Assembly (NCBI GenBank): GCA_050013255.1 | Contig: JBEKFP010000002.1 | Location: 705,185 to 769,184, forward strand | Direction: 5' to 3' | Source: Candidatus Bathyarchaeia archaeon | GTDB taxonomy: Archaea > Thermoproteota > Bathyarchaeia > 40CM-2-53-6 | Length of the DNA stretch: 64,000 nucleotides | Shown here: positions 29,408 through 36,626 of the stretch, piece after piece | How the letters are laid out: every line of letters starts with the position of its first letter | Position numbering within the stretch: the first letter of the stretch is position 1 | The notes under the pieces: generated by a model | Seen by the model: only the letters and a program-made list of their open reading frames with translations | Databases searched by the model: none | Told to the model about the DNA's origin: nothing | Made by a program: the position numbers and the translations under genes

Positions 29408-29535
29408 TGGAGCCCCGGGCGGGACTTTCAGCGATAGCACGATCGCTTTTGAACCCGCGGCCTTCGCCTCTTTGTGAGTTCGTACCAAGGCGGCGCTGTT
29501 GGCGCTTTATTTCTACCAAGCTGAGCCACCGGGGC
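29408..29535 (-). tRNA. tRNA-Thr(GGT) with three introns (15 nt at 22/23, 13 nt at 37/38, 23 nt at 59/60)
   Basis: GCCCCGG/CCGGGGC-T-CCA; BHB TGGT-AGA...GCCA-ACA in the D-arm and TTCA-AAA-GCGAT...ATCGC-TGAA-AGT in the T-loop. Confidence 0.88.
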
Positions 29536-30072
29536 TTCGCGAACTGCCCCTATGCACAACTTCGCTAAATAGATGCTGAACTCAGAACAGGTTTCGAAAA
29601 AAATTAGAAATTCAGTCGACACATTTCATGAGAAGCTAGCTACAAGACTCTGAACGTTTCATAAGATGTTCAAGAATTCAGAATGAACGGTGATGGTACG
29701 CAATCATTGGGCGTTGACCAGGAACTCTTTGCGTCTAATTCCATATGTGAGCTTCTCAGAATCAAACGACTCTGACAACGCCCCACTTGCCCAAGATTCT
29801 AACCCTGCCCGCTTACATGATTCTTCATTGTTTCCTAGTGGTTTGCAATGATGGTGCCATTGGTGAAAAGCAAGTATTACTGGTCAGCTGGCTTACACCT
29901 CGAAGCCCCCCGTTGAAATGTTCTGAGCAATTGTCTATCTTTTGCGTCAAGAAATGGTATGATTAGGGTTTTATCATTCACCGATTTGACAATGCTTATC
30001 CAAACGCTTAAGTGCGTTTACGACGGCACGGTAGTTCCGAGTTAATTCAACTAAAGGAGGCTAATTAGGAAA

Positions 30073-30888
30073 ATGGTCAAGAAATGCCCATCATGCGGCT
30101 ACAATAACCGCGACGACGCAGCATTCTGTTCAAGTTGTGGATCCTCAGTCGGTGGCTCAGTGGGGCCAGCACTCAAACCAGTCCCTTCAGTCCGCGTTGT
30201 GACTCCCGTCAGCCCGGGCAACCCAATCAGGGTTCCGGCACCCGGCCAATGCTACTATCACCCCAACCTGCCCGCCGTCTACGTCTGTAACCGGTGTGGA
30301 AGAGCAATTTGCCGCGACGACTCCAAGGCCTACATGGACCTGGTACTCTGTCCGCAGTGTTACCAAGGCGTTGTACCAATGGTAGCAGCTCCGCAAATGC
30401 AACAACCACCTATGCAAATGCAACAACCTATGCAGATGCAGCAACCACCTATGCAAATGGGACCACCACCTATGCAAATGCAAATGGGACCACCGATGGG
30501 TGGCCCTCAGGCTTTCATGGCGCCGATGCCACAATACTATCAACCGTCCCCGCCAAGAGCGCTATGGGGATTCATACTAGCAATGATTGCAGGAATCCTC
30601 GTGATCCTTAACGCAGCAGCTTTGCTCTCACCAAGTTTCTACAGCTTATGGACCGGCATCTTCTTCTGGTTGCCAGCTGTTGGCCCCCCGAGCCTAACGT
30701 TCGCGATAGGCGCGATTATCGGGCTCATACTGGTAATCGGATCGATACTAATGCTGCTAGGATTCGGTACAATTGGAAGCATCGTAGTCTTTCCGTTGGC
30801 GGTCCTGAGCCTGTTGATCGGCGGAGGGTTTGTGGCCGGATTCGTTTTGGGCGTGCTGGGCGGAATACTCGGCATGCTCGGACGCTAG
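30073..30888 (+). CDS. Zinc-ribbon + B-box-type zinc finger + P/Q/M-rich linker + C-terminal membrane domain protein
   Basis: CPSC..FCSSC; CYYHP..AVYVCNRCGRAIC...LCPQC; QQPPMQM repeats; about 4 Gly-rich TMs; GGAGG SD upstream. Confidence 0.85.
   Translation: MVKKCPSCGYNNRDDAAFCSSCGSSVGGSVGPALKPVPSVRVVTPVSPGNPIRVPAPGQCYYHPNLPAVYVCNRCGRAICRDDSKAYMDLVLCPQCYQGVVPMVAAPQMQQPPMQMQQPMQMQQPPMQMGPPPMQMQMGPPMGGPQAFMAPMPQYYQPSPPRALWGFILAMIAGILVILNAAALLSPSFYSLWTGIFFWLPAVGPPSLTFAIGAIIGLILVIGSILMLLGFGTIGSIVVFPLAVLSLLIGGGFVAGFVLGVLGGILGMLGR
30391..30500 (+). repeat. Imperfect coding tandem repeat (CAACCACCTATGCAAATG-like units) encoding a Q/P/M linker
   Basis: About 5 units of 15-21 nt visible in the sequence. 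Confidence 0.8.
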
Positions 30889-30943
30889 GGCCAAAAGGAA
30901 AATTCCCGTTTTTTTGTTTCCTTCCGATTTCTGGGTGTAGGCT

Positions 30944-32215
30944 TTGTCCTACGTGAGCATAGGGAAGCCTGTTAACGAAAAGATAGTGCACGCTGCGCGT
31001 AACAACAAAAATGAGATCGTCGGCCTGCTATTAGGAAGACTTGAAGGTAATACGCTAATAATAGAAAACTCAATTACCGGTGAATCCTCAGCCGCGCCGC
31101 ACAGGGTAAGCCTCTCTTCGAACGCTCTGGCGAAAATCGCGGACGGGCTTGTGACTGGGCTAATAAAAGGGAACATTGTGGGTTGGTACCATTCACATAC
31201 CTTGGGCGGACTTTTCTTCTCTGAAACAGACATCGAGACTCAAAGAACCCTTCAGCAATTCTCGAAACTGATTGTGGGAATGGTCGTGGACACATTGACC
31301 GGGGAAGTTGGGTTCTTTCGCGTGGACTCTCGGACAGGTGAGGCCGTACGTTTACCCGCTGAGAGGATCAGTGTCTTTTCCGGAGTTTATGAAGCGATTC
31401 CCCAAGAAACGATTGCTCCCCGCATGAGTGTACCAACGCTGGAAGTAGGGAGTGCAACTCCATCAAGGATGCCTCGAACACTCGGCGTTTTCGGGGCCGT
31501 GGGTCCCGTCATTTATCTTTCAGCCCTGTTGCTTGGCGGGTTTCTGTGGCCCGGCTACTCACAATACCGCGATACAGTTAGCACTCTCACTTCGGCAAGT
31601 TCACCCAATCAAGTCAGAGAGGTAATGCTTCTCCTCTTCGGGCTCTACAATGTCTGCGTAATCCTCTTGGCGGTCGGCCTCTACTACGGAATCGAGGGCG
31701 GGCACCTCTGGGGACCAGTGTCGCTTTTGGGCACGGGCGCCTTAGGCCTAGTCCTGTTTCTGTTTCCAGAGGACTATCCCCAAGGGTTTCCTGTTACGAT
31801 AACGGGCACCTTCCACATTGTGCTTGCCGGAGTCATCACCTTCCTCTCGCTGACCGCAATGGCATTCTTTTGGCGTCATTTCCGCCCCGACCCACACTGG
31901 AAGAATTACGTCCATTTCAGCATCGCAATGCTGCCGATCTCGACCGCCCTTGGTGTGTTTGTAGTAATCTCGATTTCCGCTCCGTACCTAGGACTTGCCG
32001 AACGTTTGTCGATTGGTTCAATCTTGTTCTGGATGGAGGCTGTCTCAATTAGACTTATCCTTCCCAGAAGGAAAGGCAACACGTCAACCAACCCAGCTGT
32101 GTTAGCCGCAGGCCTAGAGTTGCGTTCAAATGTCGGGGCATCTCAGCAAGCGATATATCCCGAAAGTAATCAGGGCGGCTGGGACCGCATTTTTCCATTC
32201 GGTCCCCCCTCATAG
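30944..32215 (+). CDS. Rpn11-like JAMM/MPN+ metalloprotease fused to a DUF998-like multi-pass membrane domain
   Basis: NEIVGLLLG...IVGWYHSH-x7-S-x2-D (FSETDIETQ); C-terminal about 6 TMs with PGYS..DTVS.L and GLAERL. Confidence 0.88.
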   Translation: MSYVSIGKPVNEKIVHAARNNKNEIVGLLLGRLEGNTLIIENSITGESSAAPHRVSLSSNALAKIADGLVTGLIKGNIVGWYHSHTLGGLFFSETDIETQRTLQQFSKLIVGMVVDTLTGEVGFFRVDSRTGEAVRLPAERISVFSGVYEAIPQETIAPRMSVPTLEVGSATPSRMPRTLGVFGAVGPVIYLSALLLGGFLWPGYSQYRDTVSTLTSASSPNQVREVMLLLFGLYNVCVILLAVGLYYGIEGGHLWGPVSLLGTGALGLVLFLFPEDYPQGFPVTITGTFHIVLAGVITFLSLTAMAFFWRHFRPDPHWKNYVHFSIAMLPISTALGVFVVISISAPYLGLAERLSIGSILFWMEAVSIRLILPRRKGNTSTNPAVLAAGLELRSNVGASQQAIYPESNQGGWDRIFPFGPPS

Positions 32216-32255
32216 TAAGATAGTTTAAGCACATCTGTGAAAATGAAAGGTCAGC

Positions 32256-32522
32256 ATGAGTGGAGGTGAAACGTCGCAAATGAAACTTTTTGTTCAAGCG
32301 CCTATTGGCCCTCAGACAGGCCTTGCGGAGATCGATGTTATTCCAGACCACACGGTTGCGGAGATAAAGCAACAGGTCTGCCAATCCTTCAACGTTGACC
32401 CAAGTACTGTGGCTCTCATGTATGGTGGCGCAATACTGGACGAGAGCACGACCGTTGCAAGGTTAGGCATTCCAGAGAATTCTCAGCTTGCACTCATGCC
32501 ATACAATATCATCGGCGGGTAG
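32256..32522 (+). CDS. Eukaryote-like ubiquitin
   Basis: MKLFVQ...DHTVAEIKQQV...LMYGGAILDESTTVARLGIPENSQL pattern matches the Ub beta-grasp; ends in GG-stop. Confidence 0.92.
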   Translation: MSGGETSQMKLFVQAPIGPQTGLAEIDVIPDHTVAEIKQQVCQSFNVDPSTVALMYGGAILDESTTVARLGIPENSQLALMPYNIIGG

Positions 32523-32533
32523 TCTGACTAGCA

Positions 32534-33130
32534 ATGGATGTTCCACTCCTGCTCAAGGAGAAGAACCTGCTCAACCACCAATTCCCAACAGTCACCGCAA
32601 TGAACGATCCTCCAACCCAATTCGAAGGCCTGATCCGCTGCGAAAAGGGGGAGGTCATGAAGCTATCGGAGAAGGGAGTCTGGCCCTTCACTGATTACAC
32701 CAACTGGCACCGGTTCAGACTTGACATTCCCCCAGAATACCCGTTGAAACCACCCGTGGCGACTTGGCTCACGGAAATTTCACACCCAAACATAGTACCG
32801 AAAATCCCGAATGCTGTATGCGTTTCAATACTCGGAGAAAAATGGGACCCCAGACTGAAACTCATTTCGGTCGTAAATGCGTTACATTACCTGCTAACGG
32901 ATCCGAACCCTCAGAGCGTGTTCGACAATCCCCGCGCCCTCAAAGCGGCAAACGTATGCCGCTCCTATGGATTCCCCAAAATGACAAAAGTCAAACCGAA
33001 AAGTAAGGAAACCGACGACATCGTCCGATTCAACGTGGTGCCTGTGCCAGAAACGAGGAATGCGGCTTCAGAGGCTGGGGATATCGTTAGGTTCGACCTT
33101 TCTGGACGGGGACATCGAGCGTCTTCTTGA
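32534..33130 (+). CDS. Ubiquitin-conjugating enzyme E2 (UBC fold)
   Basis: FRLDIPPEYPLKPP...HPNI...VCVSIL..KWDP...LLTDPNP; HPN motif and catalytic Cys intact. Confidence 0.95.
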   Translation: MDVPLLLKEKNLLNHQFPTVTAMNDPPTQFEGLIRCEKGEVMKLSEKGVWPFTDYTNWHRFRLDIPPEYPLKPPVATWLTEISHPNIVPKIPNAVCVSILGEKWDPRLKLISVVNALHYLLTDPNPQSVFDNPRALKAANVCRSYGFPKMTKVKPKSKETDDIVRFNVVPVPETRNAASEAGDIVRFDLSGRGHRASS

Positions 33131-34371
33131 TGCGCGTGAATGCTTCCCTCCCTTCCTACAAGCAAATAGAAGTGGAGCTGAACCCCAACAAGACGGCGAG
33201 AGACCTTAAAGGAATAATTTGCAAAAAACTAGGGATCGAACCTGAACTCACCAGACTACTAGCCCACGGGAAACCGCTACCGGATCATACACGTCTCTCG
33301 AGAATTAAGGAAACGGTGACCATTGACTACCTGTGGGCGCGACACTTGCTCCTCTGGGGCCTGGATGGCCAAAGAAGGATAAGAGATTCATCGGTGCTCC
33401 TCGCAGGCGCCGGCGCCATTGGCAACGAGGTAGCCAAGAACCTAGCTATGCTAGGTGTCGGGCGAATTATCATCGTAGATAGGGACACCGTGGAAATGTC
33501 TAATGTTAGCCGCATGGTCTTCTTCGAAAAAAGCGACTTGGGAAAGAACAAGGCTGAAGTCCTTGCAAGGAAAATCCACAGGAAATATCCCTTCGTCCAA
33601 ACGATCGCCTTCCGTGGCGCCCTTGAACGATTGCCACTGAAATTCTATTTGGATTCAAACGTGATAGTGTGCGGCCTCGACAACGTCGTTTCGCGAATCT
33701 TCCTAACCCAGATCTGCAGAAAATACTCTGTCCCGTTGGTTGATGGCGGAATCACGGGGATGAACGGCAGAATCCACGTATACCTCCCCCCCAACGATGC
33801 CTGCCCTGTATGCATGTTTCCGCCCAACCAATACTCGAAAATCGTTGGTTTGCGAAACCCGTGTGACGCCCCGTTGGAGCAGGAAGCCGTCCCATCCTTT
33901 TCGACAACAATCTCACTGGTCTCATCAATACTTGCCCAAGAAACGATCAAGCTGATCATTGGAATGGAAGAATACCGATCCAATGCAAGATGGCCAGAAA
34001 GTAGCGGCCAGCCACTAAGGTCAGTTCTGTTCTTGGATTTGAGAAATAATCGGTACACTCCGATGGATTTGAAGCGAGGCGAGAAATGCCTCGTATGCGG
34101 AAAGGAGGGGACGACCAGGGAACCTGCCCAACGGGGCGACCTAATGATCTCCACGGTCAGTCGTTCAAAGGGGAATTTGGCTGAAAACATTCGTCGCCAC
34201 GCCAAAATCGATGGCAAAGTGCTGCGCATACTCTTAGAAACGTCTGAGGGAACAAGGTTGTTGGATGGGCATTCGAAGCGGGGAAAGAGTGTGGGCCGAG
34301 GTGACTATCTCAGGGTTCTTGTTGACGGCAAAGACGAGGAGTTTCATGAATCAATTCTAAGGTTGACGTAG
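33127..34371 (+). CDS. Ubiquitin-activating enzyme E1 (ThiF/MoeB fold) with an N-terminal ubiquitin-like domain
   Basis: N-terminal Ubl (KTARDLKGIICKKLGIEPELTRLLAHGKPLPD); RHLLLWG, GAGAIGNEVAKNL, DRDTVEMSNVSR, GLDN, CPVC, NPC (candidate catalytic Cys), CLVC. Confidence 0.93.
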   Translation: MMRVNASLPSYKQIEVELNPNKTARDLKGIICKKLGIEPELTRLLAHGKPLPDHTRLSRIKETVTIDYLWARHLLLWGLDGQRRIRDSSVLLAGAGAIGNEVAKNLAMLGVGRIIIVDRDTVEMSNVSRMVFFEKSDLGKNKAEVLARKIHRKYPFVQTIAFRGALERLPLKFYLDSNVIVCGLDNVVSRIFLTQICRKYSVPLVDGGITGMNGRIHVYLPPNDACPVCMFPPNQYSKIVGLRNPCDAPLEQEAVPSFSTTISLVSSILAQETIKLIIGMEEYRSNARWPESSGQPLRSVLFLDLRNNRYTPMDLKRGEKCLVCGKEGTTREPAQRGDLMISTVSRSKGNLAENIRRHAKIDGKVLRILLETSEGTRLLDGHSKRGKSVGRGDYLRVLVDGKDEEFHESILRLT

Positions 34372-34512
34372 GAAGAATCTTGTATCAACCGTGTCACACA
34401 TTCGCAAGAGACCTATCGCCAAAGCCATCAATTGCCACATTTCACGGCGAATTTGAATGGGTAAGCGCATCCGCGCTTAAGTAACCGTTAAGAAATGCTT
34501 GATACCAATTGA

Positions 34513-34929
34513 ATGCGTGGTTCAAAGATGCCAATGTGTCAGGCCTGTGGCAAAGCCAACTCGGATGATGCAAGGTACTGTTTCAGCTGCGGCGTGTCGC
34601 TTGTCAATATACCACCTGTCAAAGTTGATGTGAAGTCACCTCTGACAGCTTCCATGAAGCCAACCCCCGCAGCTCCTATGTCCCCATTAACCTATGCTCC
34701 GAGGCAATTGCAGAGGCAAGGAAGCTGCTACTATCACTCCGAGTTGCCATCAGCATTCGTCTGCTCAAGATGTGGAAGGTCAATTTGTGCATCCTGTAAC
34801 AGACAATATGGAGTCCTAAGCCTGTGCACGGAATGTTACTGGGGATTGGCGCCGAAGCTGGGGTCTCAATCCGACCAATACGTGATGGGTGGCGAACAGC
34901 AAGCGCGTTCACCCTTCTCGCCTTTCTAG
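34513..34929 (+). CDS. Soluble zinc-ribbon + B-box-type zinc-finger protein (paralog of the 30073 N-terminus)
   Basis: CQACG..NSDDARYCFSCG; CYYH..AFVCSRCGRSICASC...LCTEC. Confidence 0.85.
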   Translation: MRGSKMPMCQACGKANSDDARYCFSCGVSLVNIPPVKVDVKSPLTASMKPTPAAPMSPLTYAPRQLQRQGSCYYHSELPSAFVCSRCGRSICASCNRQYGVLSLCTECYWGLAPKLGSQSDQYVMGGEQQARSPFSPF

Positions 34930-36626
34930 GCTAAGCGACCCTGATTCTTTAGCCGACTCGTTATTGTCTTGAGTTCTTCAATAGGAATTCCGAGTTCCGC
35001 TGAGGCCGTGCTTAACGAGATTACGCCTTCATGCTTCACGATGTAATCGTATACCTTATCATCCAAAGGCGGTACCATGGGCGCTTCCATCGGAGCTCCG
35101 CACTTTTCACAGAATGTCCCCTTCGGAACAAGATTCCCACAGGTACTGCAAATCTGCATTCCAACCGGGGCGGTGGGCGCGCCTACTGAAGCAGGAGGAT
35201 TAAGCATTGGTCGCGCACGGTCGAACGCACCGCGTCTGCGTGCAAGAACGAACGCCACCGCGACGACCACGACCGCGATTCCGCCACCACCAAAGAGTTC
35301 GACAAGCGGAAGATAGTCAAAGCTCCACTCAGCTTGGACAACGTACGGTCTGTCCACAGTCAGACTCCATGAATGATCAGTCTTCGTGAGGACCCCTGAC
35401 GAGGGCTCGAGCTGCCAACCAGTTAGAGTGTATGAAATAGGCCAAGTTTGAGAACTAGTAGTGGCAGTGATATTTGCTGTGGACCCGCGGTCATACCACC
35501 CTGACCCTGCAACCGAACCCTGCGAAGATCGCACATCCACATAATACTGGGTCTTGTACGAGATGGTGATTGTACGCGGCTGATCCATGACCACTGTGTA
35601 GGACGGGTTTGAAGAAGTTGAATTATTGTCGGTCCAACCGATGAAGCTAAGGCGCTCGACGGAGCTCAATTTGACAGTTGATGGAGCTGGGCCAAGCTGG
35701 ACATTTGAGTTGACATCATACCAGCCTGCATGAGATTCGTTATATCCTGAGGAAATGCTCACTGGGTTGTATTGAACGGCAAGCAAGTATTGAGCGAGAA
35801 AATTCGCACTGACTGTCTGTGGCCGGTCCATTAGGACCCGCCCAGTCGTTGATTGACCCGAGTAGTCTCCGCTCCAGTGTTCAAACATAAGACGCGTATT
35901 GTCACTGGCCGGCAGAACTGCAGCAGCGGAGAAGGTCGCTTCGCTCCCCGAATCATACCAACCAGAGCCGGAGAGGCCCGAAACGTTGGCGGGGTTGGAC
36001 ACCACTGTCAAAAGGAATTGCGTCTTCCAGTTCGCTATGGCGGTCTTCGGCCCAGTCATGAATATTTGCGCCGTAGTCAAACTAGTTCCAGACGCGTCTC
36101 CTGACCATCCTGTGAAGACTTCTCGTGTTCCTTGACCCTGATCGACATTCGCGTCATTCACGGTCGCTTGCACCGCCGTGTCAGATTCATACCACCCTTG
36201 ACCGGTCGAGGTGCTGTAAGATGTTTTTACGGTGAGATAGTATTGCGCTGTGTAAGTGAAAATGTGGCTGCCGGCCGCGGTGAAGCTCCATGACGCGTCC
36301 TGCTCATAGAAACGCGTGCCGTTAGCTAAGATGCTATTCGGGACGTAAGAATCTACTGTGATTATGTGGCCGGTGTTTGGAACGGAGAACGTTAAGGAAA
36401 GGGTCTGGCCCCCGTTAATGGTTGTGTTGAAGGTCCCATCAACGTAGAGGTTAGTGCTAACGGTTGATGGAAGGCCTGCTATGCTAACTGAAACCGAGTA
36501 AGAGAGCTGGGCTCCGACATATGGTGTGATAAGACCAGCTACGACAAGGCAAAACGCGAGCGTTAACAATGGCCGCGCGGAAAGATGCAACCCCGGTCTT
36601 CTCGTCTCGTGAGTTCGAAGCCCCAT
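34926..36626 (-). CDS. Single-pass surface protein: extracellular beta-repeat domains, TM, cytoplasmic double zinc ribbon and wHTH (PCI-like) tail
   Basis: Signal peptide; four QY.L.V...G.GWYD...GW...MD.P repeats; TM then RRRG; CSTC/CEKC; KVYDYIVKHEGVISLSTASAELGI. Confidence 0.8.
   Translation of the reverse strand: MGLRTHETRRPGLHLSARPLLTLAFCLVVAGLITPYVGAQLSYSVSVSIAGLPSTVSTNLYVDGTFNTTINGGQTLSLTFSVPNTGHIITVDSYVPNSILANGTRFYEQDASWSFTAAGSHIFTYTAQYYLTVKTSYSTSTGQGWYESDTAVQATVNDANVDQGQGTREVFTGWSGDASGTSLTTAQIFMTGPKTAIANWKTQFLLTVVSNPANVSGLSGSGWYDSGSEATFSAAAVLPASDNTRLMFEHWSGDYSGQSTTGRVLMDRPQTVSANFLAQYLLAVQYNPVSISSGYNESHAGWYDVNSNVQLGPAPSTVKLSSVERLSFIGWTDNNSTSSNPSYTVVMDQPRTITISYKTQYYVDVRSSQGSVAGSGWYDRGSTANITATTSSQTWPISYTLTGWQLEPSSGVLTKTDHSWSLTVDRPYVVQAEWSFDYLPLVELFGGGGIAVVVVAVAFVLARRRGAFDRARPMLNPPASVGAPTAPVGMQICSTCGNLVPKGTFCEKCGAPMEAPMVPPLDDKVYDYIVKHEGVISLSTASAELGIPIEELKTITSRLKNQGRLA

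Follow-up and report, generated by a model that had tools for sequence, protein, structure and literature searches.

Introduction

Archaeal ubiquitin (Ub) systems are the best models at hand for the origin of the eukaryotic system, and they have hitherto been known as soluble sets of Ub, E1, E2, RING and Rpn11 proteins. The operon of Candidatus Caldiarchaeum subterraneum encodes an Rpn11-like protein, Ub, an E2-like protein, an E1-like protein and srfp (PMC3082918; PMC5654768; PMC6043591), and srfp is the E3 required for substrate ubiquitylation in vitro (PMC5654768). Here, we analyse a 64-kb stretch of DNA (64,000 nucleotides (nt) of contig JBEKFP010000002.1, hereafter the window) that lies on a 769-kb contig of the 2.46-Mb genome of a soil/peat archaeon of the Bathyarchaeia. 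The names that databases give to close homologues assign the organism to Candidatus Bathyarchaeia. The window carries a block of seven genes, which we call A to G (Table 1). We consider this block, with reasonable though incomplete confidence, to be a complete and vertically inherited ubiquitylation operon of eukaryotic type that belongs to one Bathyarchaeia order and represents a membrane-tethered B-box variant of the Caldiarchaeum/Asgard operon.

The Bathyarchaeia block resembles the Caldiarchaeum operon in its Ub ending in Gly-Gly, its one UBC-type E2 with an HPN motif and a catalytic Cys, its UBA1-like E1 with a zinc site, and its Rpn11-like JAMM protein. The layout of the operon is also alike, including a small zinc-finger gene directly after the E1 gene. 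Judged by sequence, the core is ordinary for an archaeal ubiquitin system. The differences lie around it. In Caldiarchaeum a RING-H2 protein follows E1, whereas here the corresponding protein has a zinc ribbon and a B-box, and a membrane-anchored paralogue of it stands at the head of the operon. The JAMM protein of Caldiarchaeum is soluble and divergently encoded, whereas the one described here is co-directional and membrane-anchored; the JAMM homologues of sister lineages are called soluble from their Pfam content only, not from transmembrane (TM) prediction. Relative to Caldiarchaeum, the Ub has no need of C-terminal processing, the E2 has a conserved tail, and a receptor-like protein with a zinc ribbon and a winged-helix-like domain belongs to the block. 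Caldiarchaeum-type E1 proteins have their ubiquitin-like domain (Ubl) at the C-terminal end and a Cys in an insert of about 85 amino acids (aa), whereas the E1 of the block has its Pfam-detected Ubl at the N-terminal end and its candidate Cys in a short loop. New here are the pair of B-box proteins, the membrane anchoring of the JAMM protein, the changed position of the Ubl in E1, the tail of E2 and the receptor-like partner.

In full-text searches, no paper connected an E2 or a ubiquitin operon with Bathyarchaeota or Bathyarchaeia; one paper lists an M67 peptidase only. The Hennell James supplement sets out Clusters I-III and names no Bathyarchaeota (PMC5654768). Surveys of archaeal ubiquitin operons, in the portions covered, do not name the lineage and mention neither B-box nor membrane-anchored parts. 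No description of this architecture was found anywhere in the literature searched.

Fingers of the Prok-RING_1 family (PF14446) are likewise encoded with Ub, E1, E2 and JAB proteins, and some versions carry TM helices. A and F differ from them in failing the family cut-off, which the srfp homologues of sister lineages reach. Prokaryotic B-box proteins (PF00643) have the same eight-ligand finger as A and F and are often fused to, or encoded beside, membrane proteins and a peptidase; they have been read as unrelated to ubiquitin (PMC4506424), whereas here they are fixed members of a Ub/E2/E1/JAMM operon. The B-boxes of eukaryotic TRIM/RBCC proteins, the endoplasmic-reticulum-associated degradation (ERAD) ligases Hrd1 and Doa10, and the JAMM deubiquitinase (DUB) AMSH offer an analogy only, that of a B-box, a ligase or a DUB at a membrane. 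Here, no RING or coiled coil adjoins the B-box, and the membrane parts are not homologous. Even in eukaryotes, the E3 activity of B-boxes is marginal.

A B-box in the place of a RING touches on two questions: why the RINGs of eukaryotic TRIM ligases have B-boxes beside them, and whether the B-boxes of prokaryotes are truly unrelated to ubiquitin. The block also presents a DUB and a ligase-like protein built into the membrane, together with a receptor-like partner that is a concrete candidate substrate. Five soluble domains suffice to reconstitute this small system, which makes it testable at the bench, and it occurs widely within a single order of archaea that abound in soil and peat.

Conservation of the seven-gene block

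All seven open reading frames (ORFs) were recovered in an ORF check, with A to F co-directional and G convergent. Domains were called by Pfam profile scans and TM segments by hydropathy, both on the ORF translations of the window, and the genes, coordinates and domains given by the first-pass annotation, which had been made from the letters of the window alone, agreed with these results. The annotation had also described a convergent surface protein overlapping its neighbour by 4 nt, and we located this overlap at 34926-34929, where the stop codons of F and G meet; it is retained in about ten genus-level relatives. ORFs D and E also share 4 nt.

We compared the E1 neighbourhoods of 27 relatives, which cover the genus and about ten families of one Bathyarchaeia order, scoring block order in the loci long enough to show it. 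The order A, JAMM protein, Ub, E2, E1, F and convergent G was complete or nearly so in 27/27 loci, with one accessory gene missing or displaced in a few. Upstream of the block, genes for an acyl-CoA dehydrogenase and a glyoxalase are common to close relatives only, and downstream nothing is shared.

E2 was present in 36 of the 201 genomes of the class that we sampled, and all but one of the 36 belong to this order. No E2 turned up in the sister genera g2 and g3 of the window's own family (0/13 genomes, many of them >90% complete), nor did family f9 or a single genome (G158) of genus g17 yield one. Full-length A tracked E2, being present in the same genomes and missing where E2 is missing; genomes that lack E2 had only partial matches to the membrane module of A or weak finger matches. 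Although relatives are not independent, the pattern gives about three separate joint absences of A and E2. The first-pass annotation had proposed a distinct Ub system with membrane accessory parts, and the order-wide co-conservation of A, B, F and G with Ub, E2 and E1 upholds that proposal. The 27 loci and the co-occurrence of A with E2 likewise bear out that the flanking B-box and membrane genes are inherited with the Ub-E2-E1 core.

We also noted a locus from another order of the class (L066, G051:C5:10000-27500) that encodes A, a 212-aa JAMM protein, Ub, E2 and E1. No F follows its E1, and two G-like genes lie on the other side. This locus may be an intermediate or reduced form.

Table 1. 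Genes of the block and putative expression signals, in window coordinates.
Feature	Position	Strand	Description
A	30073-30888	+	271 aa; zinc ribbon, B-box and C-terminal TM anchor
B	30944-32215	+	423 aa; JAB/MPN (JAMM), then DUF998
C	32256-32522	+	88 aa; ubiquitin, GG-stop
D	32534-33130	+	198 aa; UBC E2
E	33127-34371	+	414 aa; E1, N-terminal Ubl before ThiF fold
F	34513-34929	+	138 aa; soluble, zinc ribbon and B-box
G	34926-36626	-	566 aa; single-pass surface protein
Probable archaeal BRE/TATA promoter element AAACGCTTAAGTGC	30001-30014	+	About 60 nt before the start of A; read from sequence only
GGAGG ribosome-binding site of A	30056-30060	+	Read from sequence
TATA-like element CGCTTAAGT, putative own promoter of F	34474-34482	+	Positional conservation in relatives

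The ubiquitin, E2 and E1 core

The core had first been read as a Ub ending in Gly-Gly, a UBC-type E2 with HPN and Cys, and an E1 with a Ubl, and both the Pfam matches and the invariant motifs agree with this. C matches the Pfam ubiquitin family (PF00240) at 42 bits and its ORF ends in NIIGG-stop, with the GG tail kept in 27 sequences. Because the ORF stops right after Gly-Gly, leaving no pro-peptide, C needs no C-terminal processing. Its true start is probably the ATG at 32280 (80 aa), which we favour because the ORFs of many relatives begin at the matching residue. Across the order C is 75-99% identical, with K38 invariant and K10 85% conserved, and in a search of solved structures it matched eukaryotic Ub, the Rad23 UBL and CsUb 6fj7.

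D is the only UQ_con protein in the whole genome (62 bits), and its best solved relatives are eukaryotic UBCs (E about 3e-12). Residues H84, P85 and N86 (the HPN motif), catalytic Cys96 and W104 are invariant in 21-22 orthologues. Beyond the core, D continues into a C-terminal tail (about 150-198) that holds two conserved (D)x[VI]RF motifs (window 33005-33110, residues about 158-192), the first of them followed by N-[IV]-[IV]-P-x-P; F166, P170, P172 and F187 are invariant across the order. Sister-class E2 proteins (146-159 aa), judged by length only, appear to be without most of this tail, which may be a docking motif for the Ubl of E1, a zinc ribbon or Ub.

E matches Pfam ubiquitin at residues 11-59 and ThiF at 168 bits, with the adenylation domain at 71-284. 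Its zinc site (CxxC226-229 / CxxC321-324) is invariant, and so is Cys246, which lies in a short crossover loop after the first pair and is our candidate for the thioester Cys. Among solved proteins, E has its best relatives in eukaryotic UBA1, whose active adenylation domains match at E about 8e-34, ahead of ThiF (7e-23) and MoeB. Orthologues were found in 35/40 relatives searched, and the C-terminal 80-81 aa matched no Pfam family. The Ubl that Pfam detects is at the N-terminal end of E and at the C-terminal end of the Caldiarchaeum-type E1 of sister lineages. Between the Ubl of E (window 33127-33340) and its C-terminal counterpart in the E1 of one sister-lineage locus (L064, residues 317-360) there is a weak alignment (E 0.17), a hint that the E1 Ubl has moved from one end of the protein to the other.

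Two readings of the core that differ from housekeeping ubiquitylation bear chiefly on the matches of E. According to the first, C and E would form a sulfur-carrier or cofactor pathway with a MoaD/ThiS-type Ubl and its E1, and would conjugate nothing to protein. E does match the ThiF, MoeB and UbaA models, below their cut-offs; however, it fits UBA1 far better than ThiF or MoeB, and the same operon holds a UBC-type E2 with HPN and Cys and an Rpn11-like JAMM protein. We regard a sulfur-carrier role as excluded, and grant it next to no probability, because E2 and JAMM are present and the genome encodes a MoeB/ThiF-like protein separately, at another site (C2:240636). According to the second reading, which the first-pass annotation had raised as virus defence, the block would conjugate a Ubl to viral or signalling proteins in the manner of Bil or CBASS-Cap2. 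The adenylation domain of E matches the PADLOC E1-E2 (Cap2) and BilD models (E 1e-17 to 1e-7), but these matches reflect the generic E1 fold only, and no PADLOC model matches the other six proteins (E2, Ub, JAMM, A, F and G). The nearest relatives of the core proteins are housekeeping enzymes of Caldiarchaeum and eukaryotes, and the synteny of the block is fixed across the order, with no variable island. A defence island is unlikely because the block is single-copy and syntenic, and we consider this reading of the locus very improbable and the earlier suggestion unsupported.

B-box proteins and the E3 question

A consists of a zinc ribbon (4-25), a B-box (about 60-96) and a P/Q/M-rich linker, followed by the TM anchor. 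F consists of a zinc ribbon (9-27) and a B-box (72-108) whose eight ligands, C,H,C,C,C,C,C,C, do not vary. A, which is membrane-anchored, and F, which is soluble, share this pair of fingers and are paralogues. We tested the second finger against the reference spacing of the B-box family (PF00643), C-x2-H-x7/8-C-x2-C-x4-C-x2-[C/D]-x(n)-[C/H]-x2-[C/H], and observed the pattern C-x2-H-x8-C-x2-C-x4-C-x2-[C/D]-x9-C-x2-C without exception in 48 copies (27 loci). As sixth ligand, F and the basal copies of A have Cys, and most A proteins, including that of the window, have Asp. When 30 domain copies were scanned singly, zf-B_box was the top Pfam family for 30/30 (best E 6e-7), and Prok-RING_1 or RING models gave weak matches in only 5-9 of them. 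When 1.84 billion representatives were searched with a profile of the domain, 527 proteins were returned. Ten distant matches were sampled, of which 9/10 carry zf-B_box, five of them over the Pfam cut-off, alongside kinases, WD40/InlB repeats, helix-turn-helix (HTH) domains or Toastrack; the tenth is a DnaJ protein with a weak RING-type match only.

The AlphaFold2 (AF2) model of F is confident in the two fingers only, with a predicted local distance difference test (pLDDT) score of about 80-84 for the B-box. A Foldseek search of this model against the PDB returned nothing at E <= 0.001, the top rows being uS14 and LIM (sequential) fingers, and an hmmsearch of the F family against PDB sequences gave zinc-ribbon matches only, plus TRIM28 at E 1.2. 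A cross-brace, binuclear, RING-like fold for the second finger of A and F is plausible, rather than proven, from the model. In A, the first finger matches Zn_Ribbon_1 at 31 bits. In both proteins the first finger reads C-x2-C-x3-N-x6-C-x2-C, the spacing of RanBP2/NZF fingers, to which it has weak fold matches; the Thr-Phe pair by which NZF fingers bind ubiquitin is missing from it. A zinc ribbon is common to A, F, G and the JAMM protein of one relative, and we suggest that it may be a docking module.

The whole genome has no match above cut-off or noise to zf-RING_2, Prok-RING_1, zf-C3HC4, U-box or the srfp profile of the sister lineages. For Prok-RING_1 (PF14446), the best score of A was 14.6 bits against a cut-off of 29.1, and some match was seen in only 8/30 domain copies. 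A phylum-wide search with the E2 profile returned a second, distant set of E2 proteins in other families, similar to the window type only at E about 1e-17. Four of the six distant-E2 loci examined are classical Caldiarchaeum-type operons of sister lineages (within L061-L065). These encode, in divergent orientation, a JAMM homologue (about 200-270 aa) whose only Pfam domains, where checked, are JAB/MPN, then Ub, E2, an E1 with C-terminal Ubl and, directly after E1, a protein of 75-80 aa. This small protein, the srfp homologue, scores above cut-off for both zf-RING_2 and Prok-RING_1 and has CRR or CKR at its end.

F fills the gene slot directly after E1, where the sister lineages encode the RING protein srfp. 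Because of this slot replacement, the strict co-inheritance of A and F with the operon, and the lack of any other candidate in the genome, the two B-box proteins are likely to be E3 equivalents or E3-like adaptors. The first-pass annotation had called the block RING-less, with B-box proteins bracketing the core. The genome indeed yields no RING, U-box or srfp match, and A and F are where they were placed; however, the lack of a RING is formal only if the B-box is, as it appears, a RING-like finger with eight ligands and two metal sites, and the position of F in the srfp slot makes the pair likely E3 equivalents rather than mere brackets.

Several observations weigh against a ligase role for the B-box proteins. 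Window A (17.2 bits) and F (18.3-21.7 bits) score below the zf-B_box cut-off of 24.1, and the modelled B-box of F matches the cross-brace fingers of FYVE, Slp, RING and B-box proteins at Z 2.5-3.5 only. The residue after the last zinc ligand is Tyr (consensus CPQCY), not the Arg/Lys linchpin seen in the CRR and CKR ends of the sister srfps, and hhalign of the B-box against those srfps gave a probability of 8.5%, with no specific relationship. B-box proteins with TM segments also exist outside the operon in this genome. Burroughs et al. in 2011 reportedly read prokaryotic B-boxes as partners of membrane proteases, with no ubiquitin role. An account that cites this work ties prokaryotic B-boxes to the folding, stability and proteolysis of membrane proteins and not to ubiquitin (PMC4506424). 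A complex prediction for the E2 core (1-155), the B-box of F and two zinc ions, run twice and with no controls, gave an ipSAE of 0.00 and counts neither way.

These observations (the membrane-protein association of prokaryotic B-boxes, the missing basic linchpin, the lack of specific similarity to srfp and the B-box proteins outside the operon), together with the fusion of the B-box family elsewhere to kinases, DnaJ, HTH and Toastrack, favour an explanation in which A and F are not ligases. The E2 would then work without an E3 or with G, and A and F would be substrates, adaptors that bind Ub or peptides, or partners that bring substrates to the JAMM protein. This explanation would leave the position of F in the srfp slot, the strict co-inheritance of two paralogues with a single E2 and the failure of the genome to yield an alternative E3 as points against it, and we judge it rather unlikely, although it is the strongest of the competing accounts.

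The two additional B-box proteins with TM segments are each encoded at a site of their own. One (189 aa; G000:C3:274810-275376; L069:511-1080) has the TM module of A and no zinc ribbon; the other (139 aa; G000:C2:584095-584514; L070:396-815) joins a B-box to DUF131. Both may be additional adaptors serving the single E2, or may have no connection with it.

The membrane-anchored JAMM protein and the surface protein G

B combines a JAB domain (44.9 bits, residues 1 to about 150) with DUF998 (PF06197; 68.3 bits against a cut-off of 30; residues 186-368), which accounts for about six TM segments. The JAMM motif, E24 ... H83-x-H85-x7-S93-x2-D96, is intact, and HxHx7Sx2D is intact in 23 relatives too. 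The best solved match of B is CsRpn11 6fjv (E 5e-17), followed by CSN5 and Rpn11. The DUB had been described as a membrane protein, and this is confirmed by the six TM segments of B and by a clear TM segment after the catalytic domain in 22/23 of the relatives' JAMM homologues scored. The exception, L028, is a JAMM ORF of 244 aa with only a marginal hydrophobic stretch of 19 residues. The fusion to DUF998 is confined to the window's subclade (relatives L013, L014, L015 and L039). Most other JAMM homologues have a single TM segment and about 300 residues beyond it, with weak Ig-like matches; two are short, and one of these, L030, adds an N-terminal zinc ribbon. A has a C-terminal multi-TM anchor (about 160-271, by hydropathy), and its TM part matched no Pfam family. 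Overall, the membrane theme is conserved across relatives, and the membrane modules themselves are not.

The TM module of A also forms the end of a protein of 798 aa that matched no Pfam family (G000:C2:176420-178816, L068:621-3017). It is 55% identical to A residues 133-271, and similar proteins of about 725-827 aa occur in relatives.

G has a signal or TM segment at 12-42, an ectodomain of InlB-type B-repeats and a TM segment at 438-468, and its N-terminal part matched no Pfam family. The tail that follows is cytoplasmic by this layout, with a zinc ribbon at about 492-510 and a three-helix, winged-helix-like domain at about 520-566. Order-wide, the tail is conserved and the ectodomain varies, with InlB-type (Flg_new_2) repeats in some proteins and Big_3_5/Big_1 repeats in others. 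The convergent surface protein of the first-pass annotation is thus present, with InlB B-repeats and two hydrophobic segments, and is moreover a conserved member of the block. We see in G a candidate for a substrate, for a receptor of substrates or for a regulator tethered to the membrane.

The AF2 model of the G tail is confident in its winged-helix part (pLDDT 81-87). In Foldseek searches, the best rows for the tail were the winged helix of CdvB (2xvc_A), Lrp/AsnC, ArsR and Z-alpha, all at E > 0.1 and none significant, and a search of the Atlas gave one lead at 0.80, below a meaningful level. These results bear on the possibility that G is not a substrate and is instead a membrane-tethered one-component regulator, with the ectodomain as sensor and the winged helix as DNA binder, that controls the operon or is released by the system. 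A conserved tail on a varying ectodomain would suit such a regulator, as would a three-helix model with matches of Lrp/AsnC, ArsR and Z-alpha type, and HTH_24 is found in 19% of the members of the Atlas neighbour cluster. However, none of the fold matches is better than E 0.1, the top row, CdvB 2xvc_A, is a protein-binding winged helix, and no Pfam HTH model matched the tail. No operator was identified either, the CTTAAG element that stands before A, F and G reading as a TATA box. We think it unlikely that G is such a regulator; the possibility is in any case compatible with a membrane-tethered ubiquitylation operon.

Because A, the JAMM domain and the tail of G carry no signal that would export their soluble parts, all three should face the cytoplasm at the membrane, and tagging probably takes place there. 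The first-pass annotation had the system act at the cell membrane, in quality control or sorting of membrane proteins. The TM anchors of A, B and G stand behind the location, while the action itself, and either purpose, we can only infer.

In the explanation that we favour, a ubiquitylation operon with B-box E3 equivalents, E1 would adenylate the ready-made Ub-GG and load it onto Cys246, from which it would pass to Cys96 of E2. The B-boxes of A, whose TM anchor keeps it at the inner membrane face, and of soluble F would act as a RING-like E3 or adaptor that delivers E2~Ub to membrane-located substrates. As a substrate or its receptor, the cytoplasmic tail of G, with its zinc ribbon and winged helix, would be the best candidate, and the membrane-anchored, Rpn11-like JAMM protein would remove the tag on the spot. 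Physiologically, the outcome could be that surface proteins are turned over or sorted, or that a tethered regulator is set free.

About 470 kb from the operon, a Vps4-like ATPase (Vps4_C over cut-off) is encoded beside two weak Snf7-like ORFs (G000:C2:264404-268725). A link between tagging and ESCRT-type machinery is possible. In a bolder proposal, the block would be a prokaryotic forerunner of membrane-protein ubiquitylation, in which the working E3 finger is a B-box rather than a RING, G and further surface proteins receive tags on the tails that face the cytoplasm and are passed to ESCRT-III/Vps4 or to Cdc48 and the proteasome, and the membrane Rpn11-like enzyme edits the tag. We consider this proposal improbable. 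If it is true, Ub-dependent sorting or extraction of membrane proteins would predate eukaryotes and exist beyond Asgard archaea, and so would E3 activity of B-boxes.

Promoters and expression

The probable promoter element of A combines a B recognition element (BRE) and a TATA box, and an element of AAACGCTTAAGTGC type lies at the same distance before the A orthologue in most of the 24 relatives whose upstream regions we compared. The genus has the form AAAYGCTTAAGWG, most other families have GGAAAGGCTTAAGA, and L033-L035 have GGAAAGGTTTAARA. AAGGAGG stands ahead of the start codon of A in most of the 24. F probably has its own promoter; the 9-mer CGCTTAAGT was not enriched within the window when one mismatch was allowed, and its meaning rests on positional conservation alone. 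A scan for bacterial promoters and terminators gave hits at chance level only, as expected for an archaeon, and these were set aside.

In three metatranscriptome studies of peat and soil, contigs with 90-99% identity lie on A (many contigs), on Ub and E2 and on portions of E1, F and G, and no RNA-library contig lies on the intergenic DNA at either side of the operon. The RNA runs held 5-8% of the sampled words, as assembled contigs, so that depth was not used to rank genes and missing cover in some bins is no evidence of absence. Two points weigh against reading these contigs as expression of the operon itself: they come mostly from relatives 90-95% alike, and DNA carry-over is possible. The operon is apparently transcribed in close relatives, which contigs of this kind can suggest and cannot prove.

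The P/Q/M-rich linker of A (window 30380-30560) differs in length among close relatives, and at the same positions the RNA-library contigs show in-frame insertions and deletions of 3-21 nt as well as larger skips. Elsewhere in the window, a tRNA-Thr with three introns had been proposed at 29408-29535; neither Rfam (at the gathering score) nor ARAGORN called a tRNA there, a result that still allows for a multi-intron archaeal tRNA. The end of the window is archaeal 23S rRNA.

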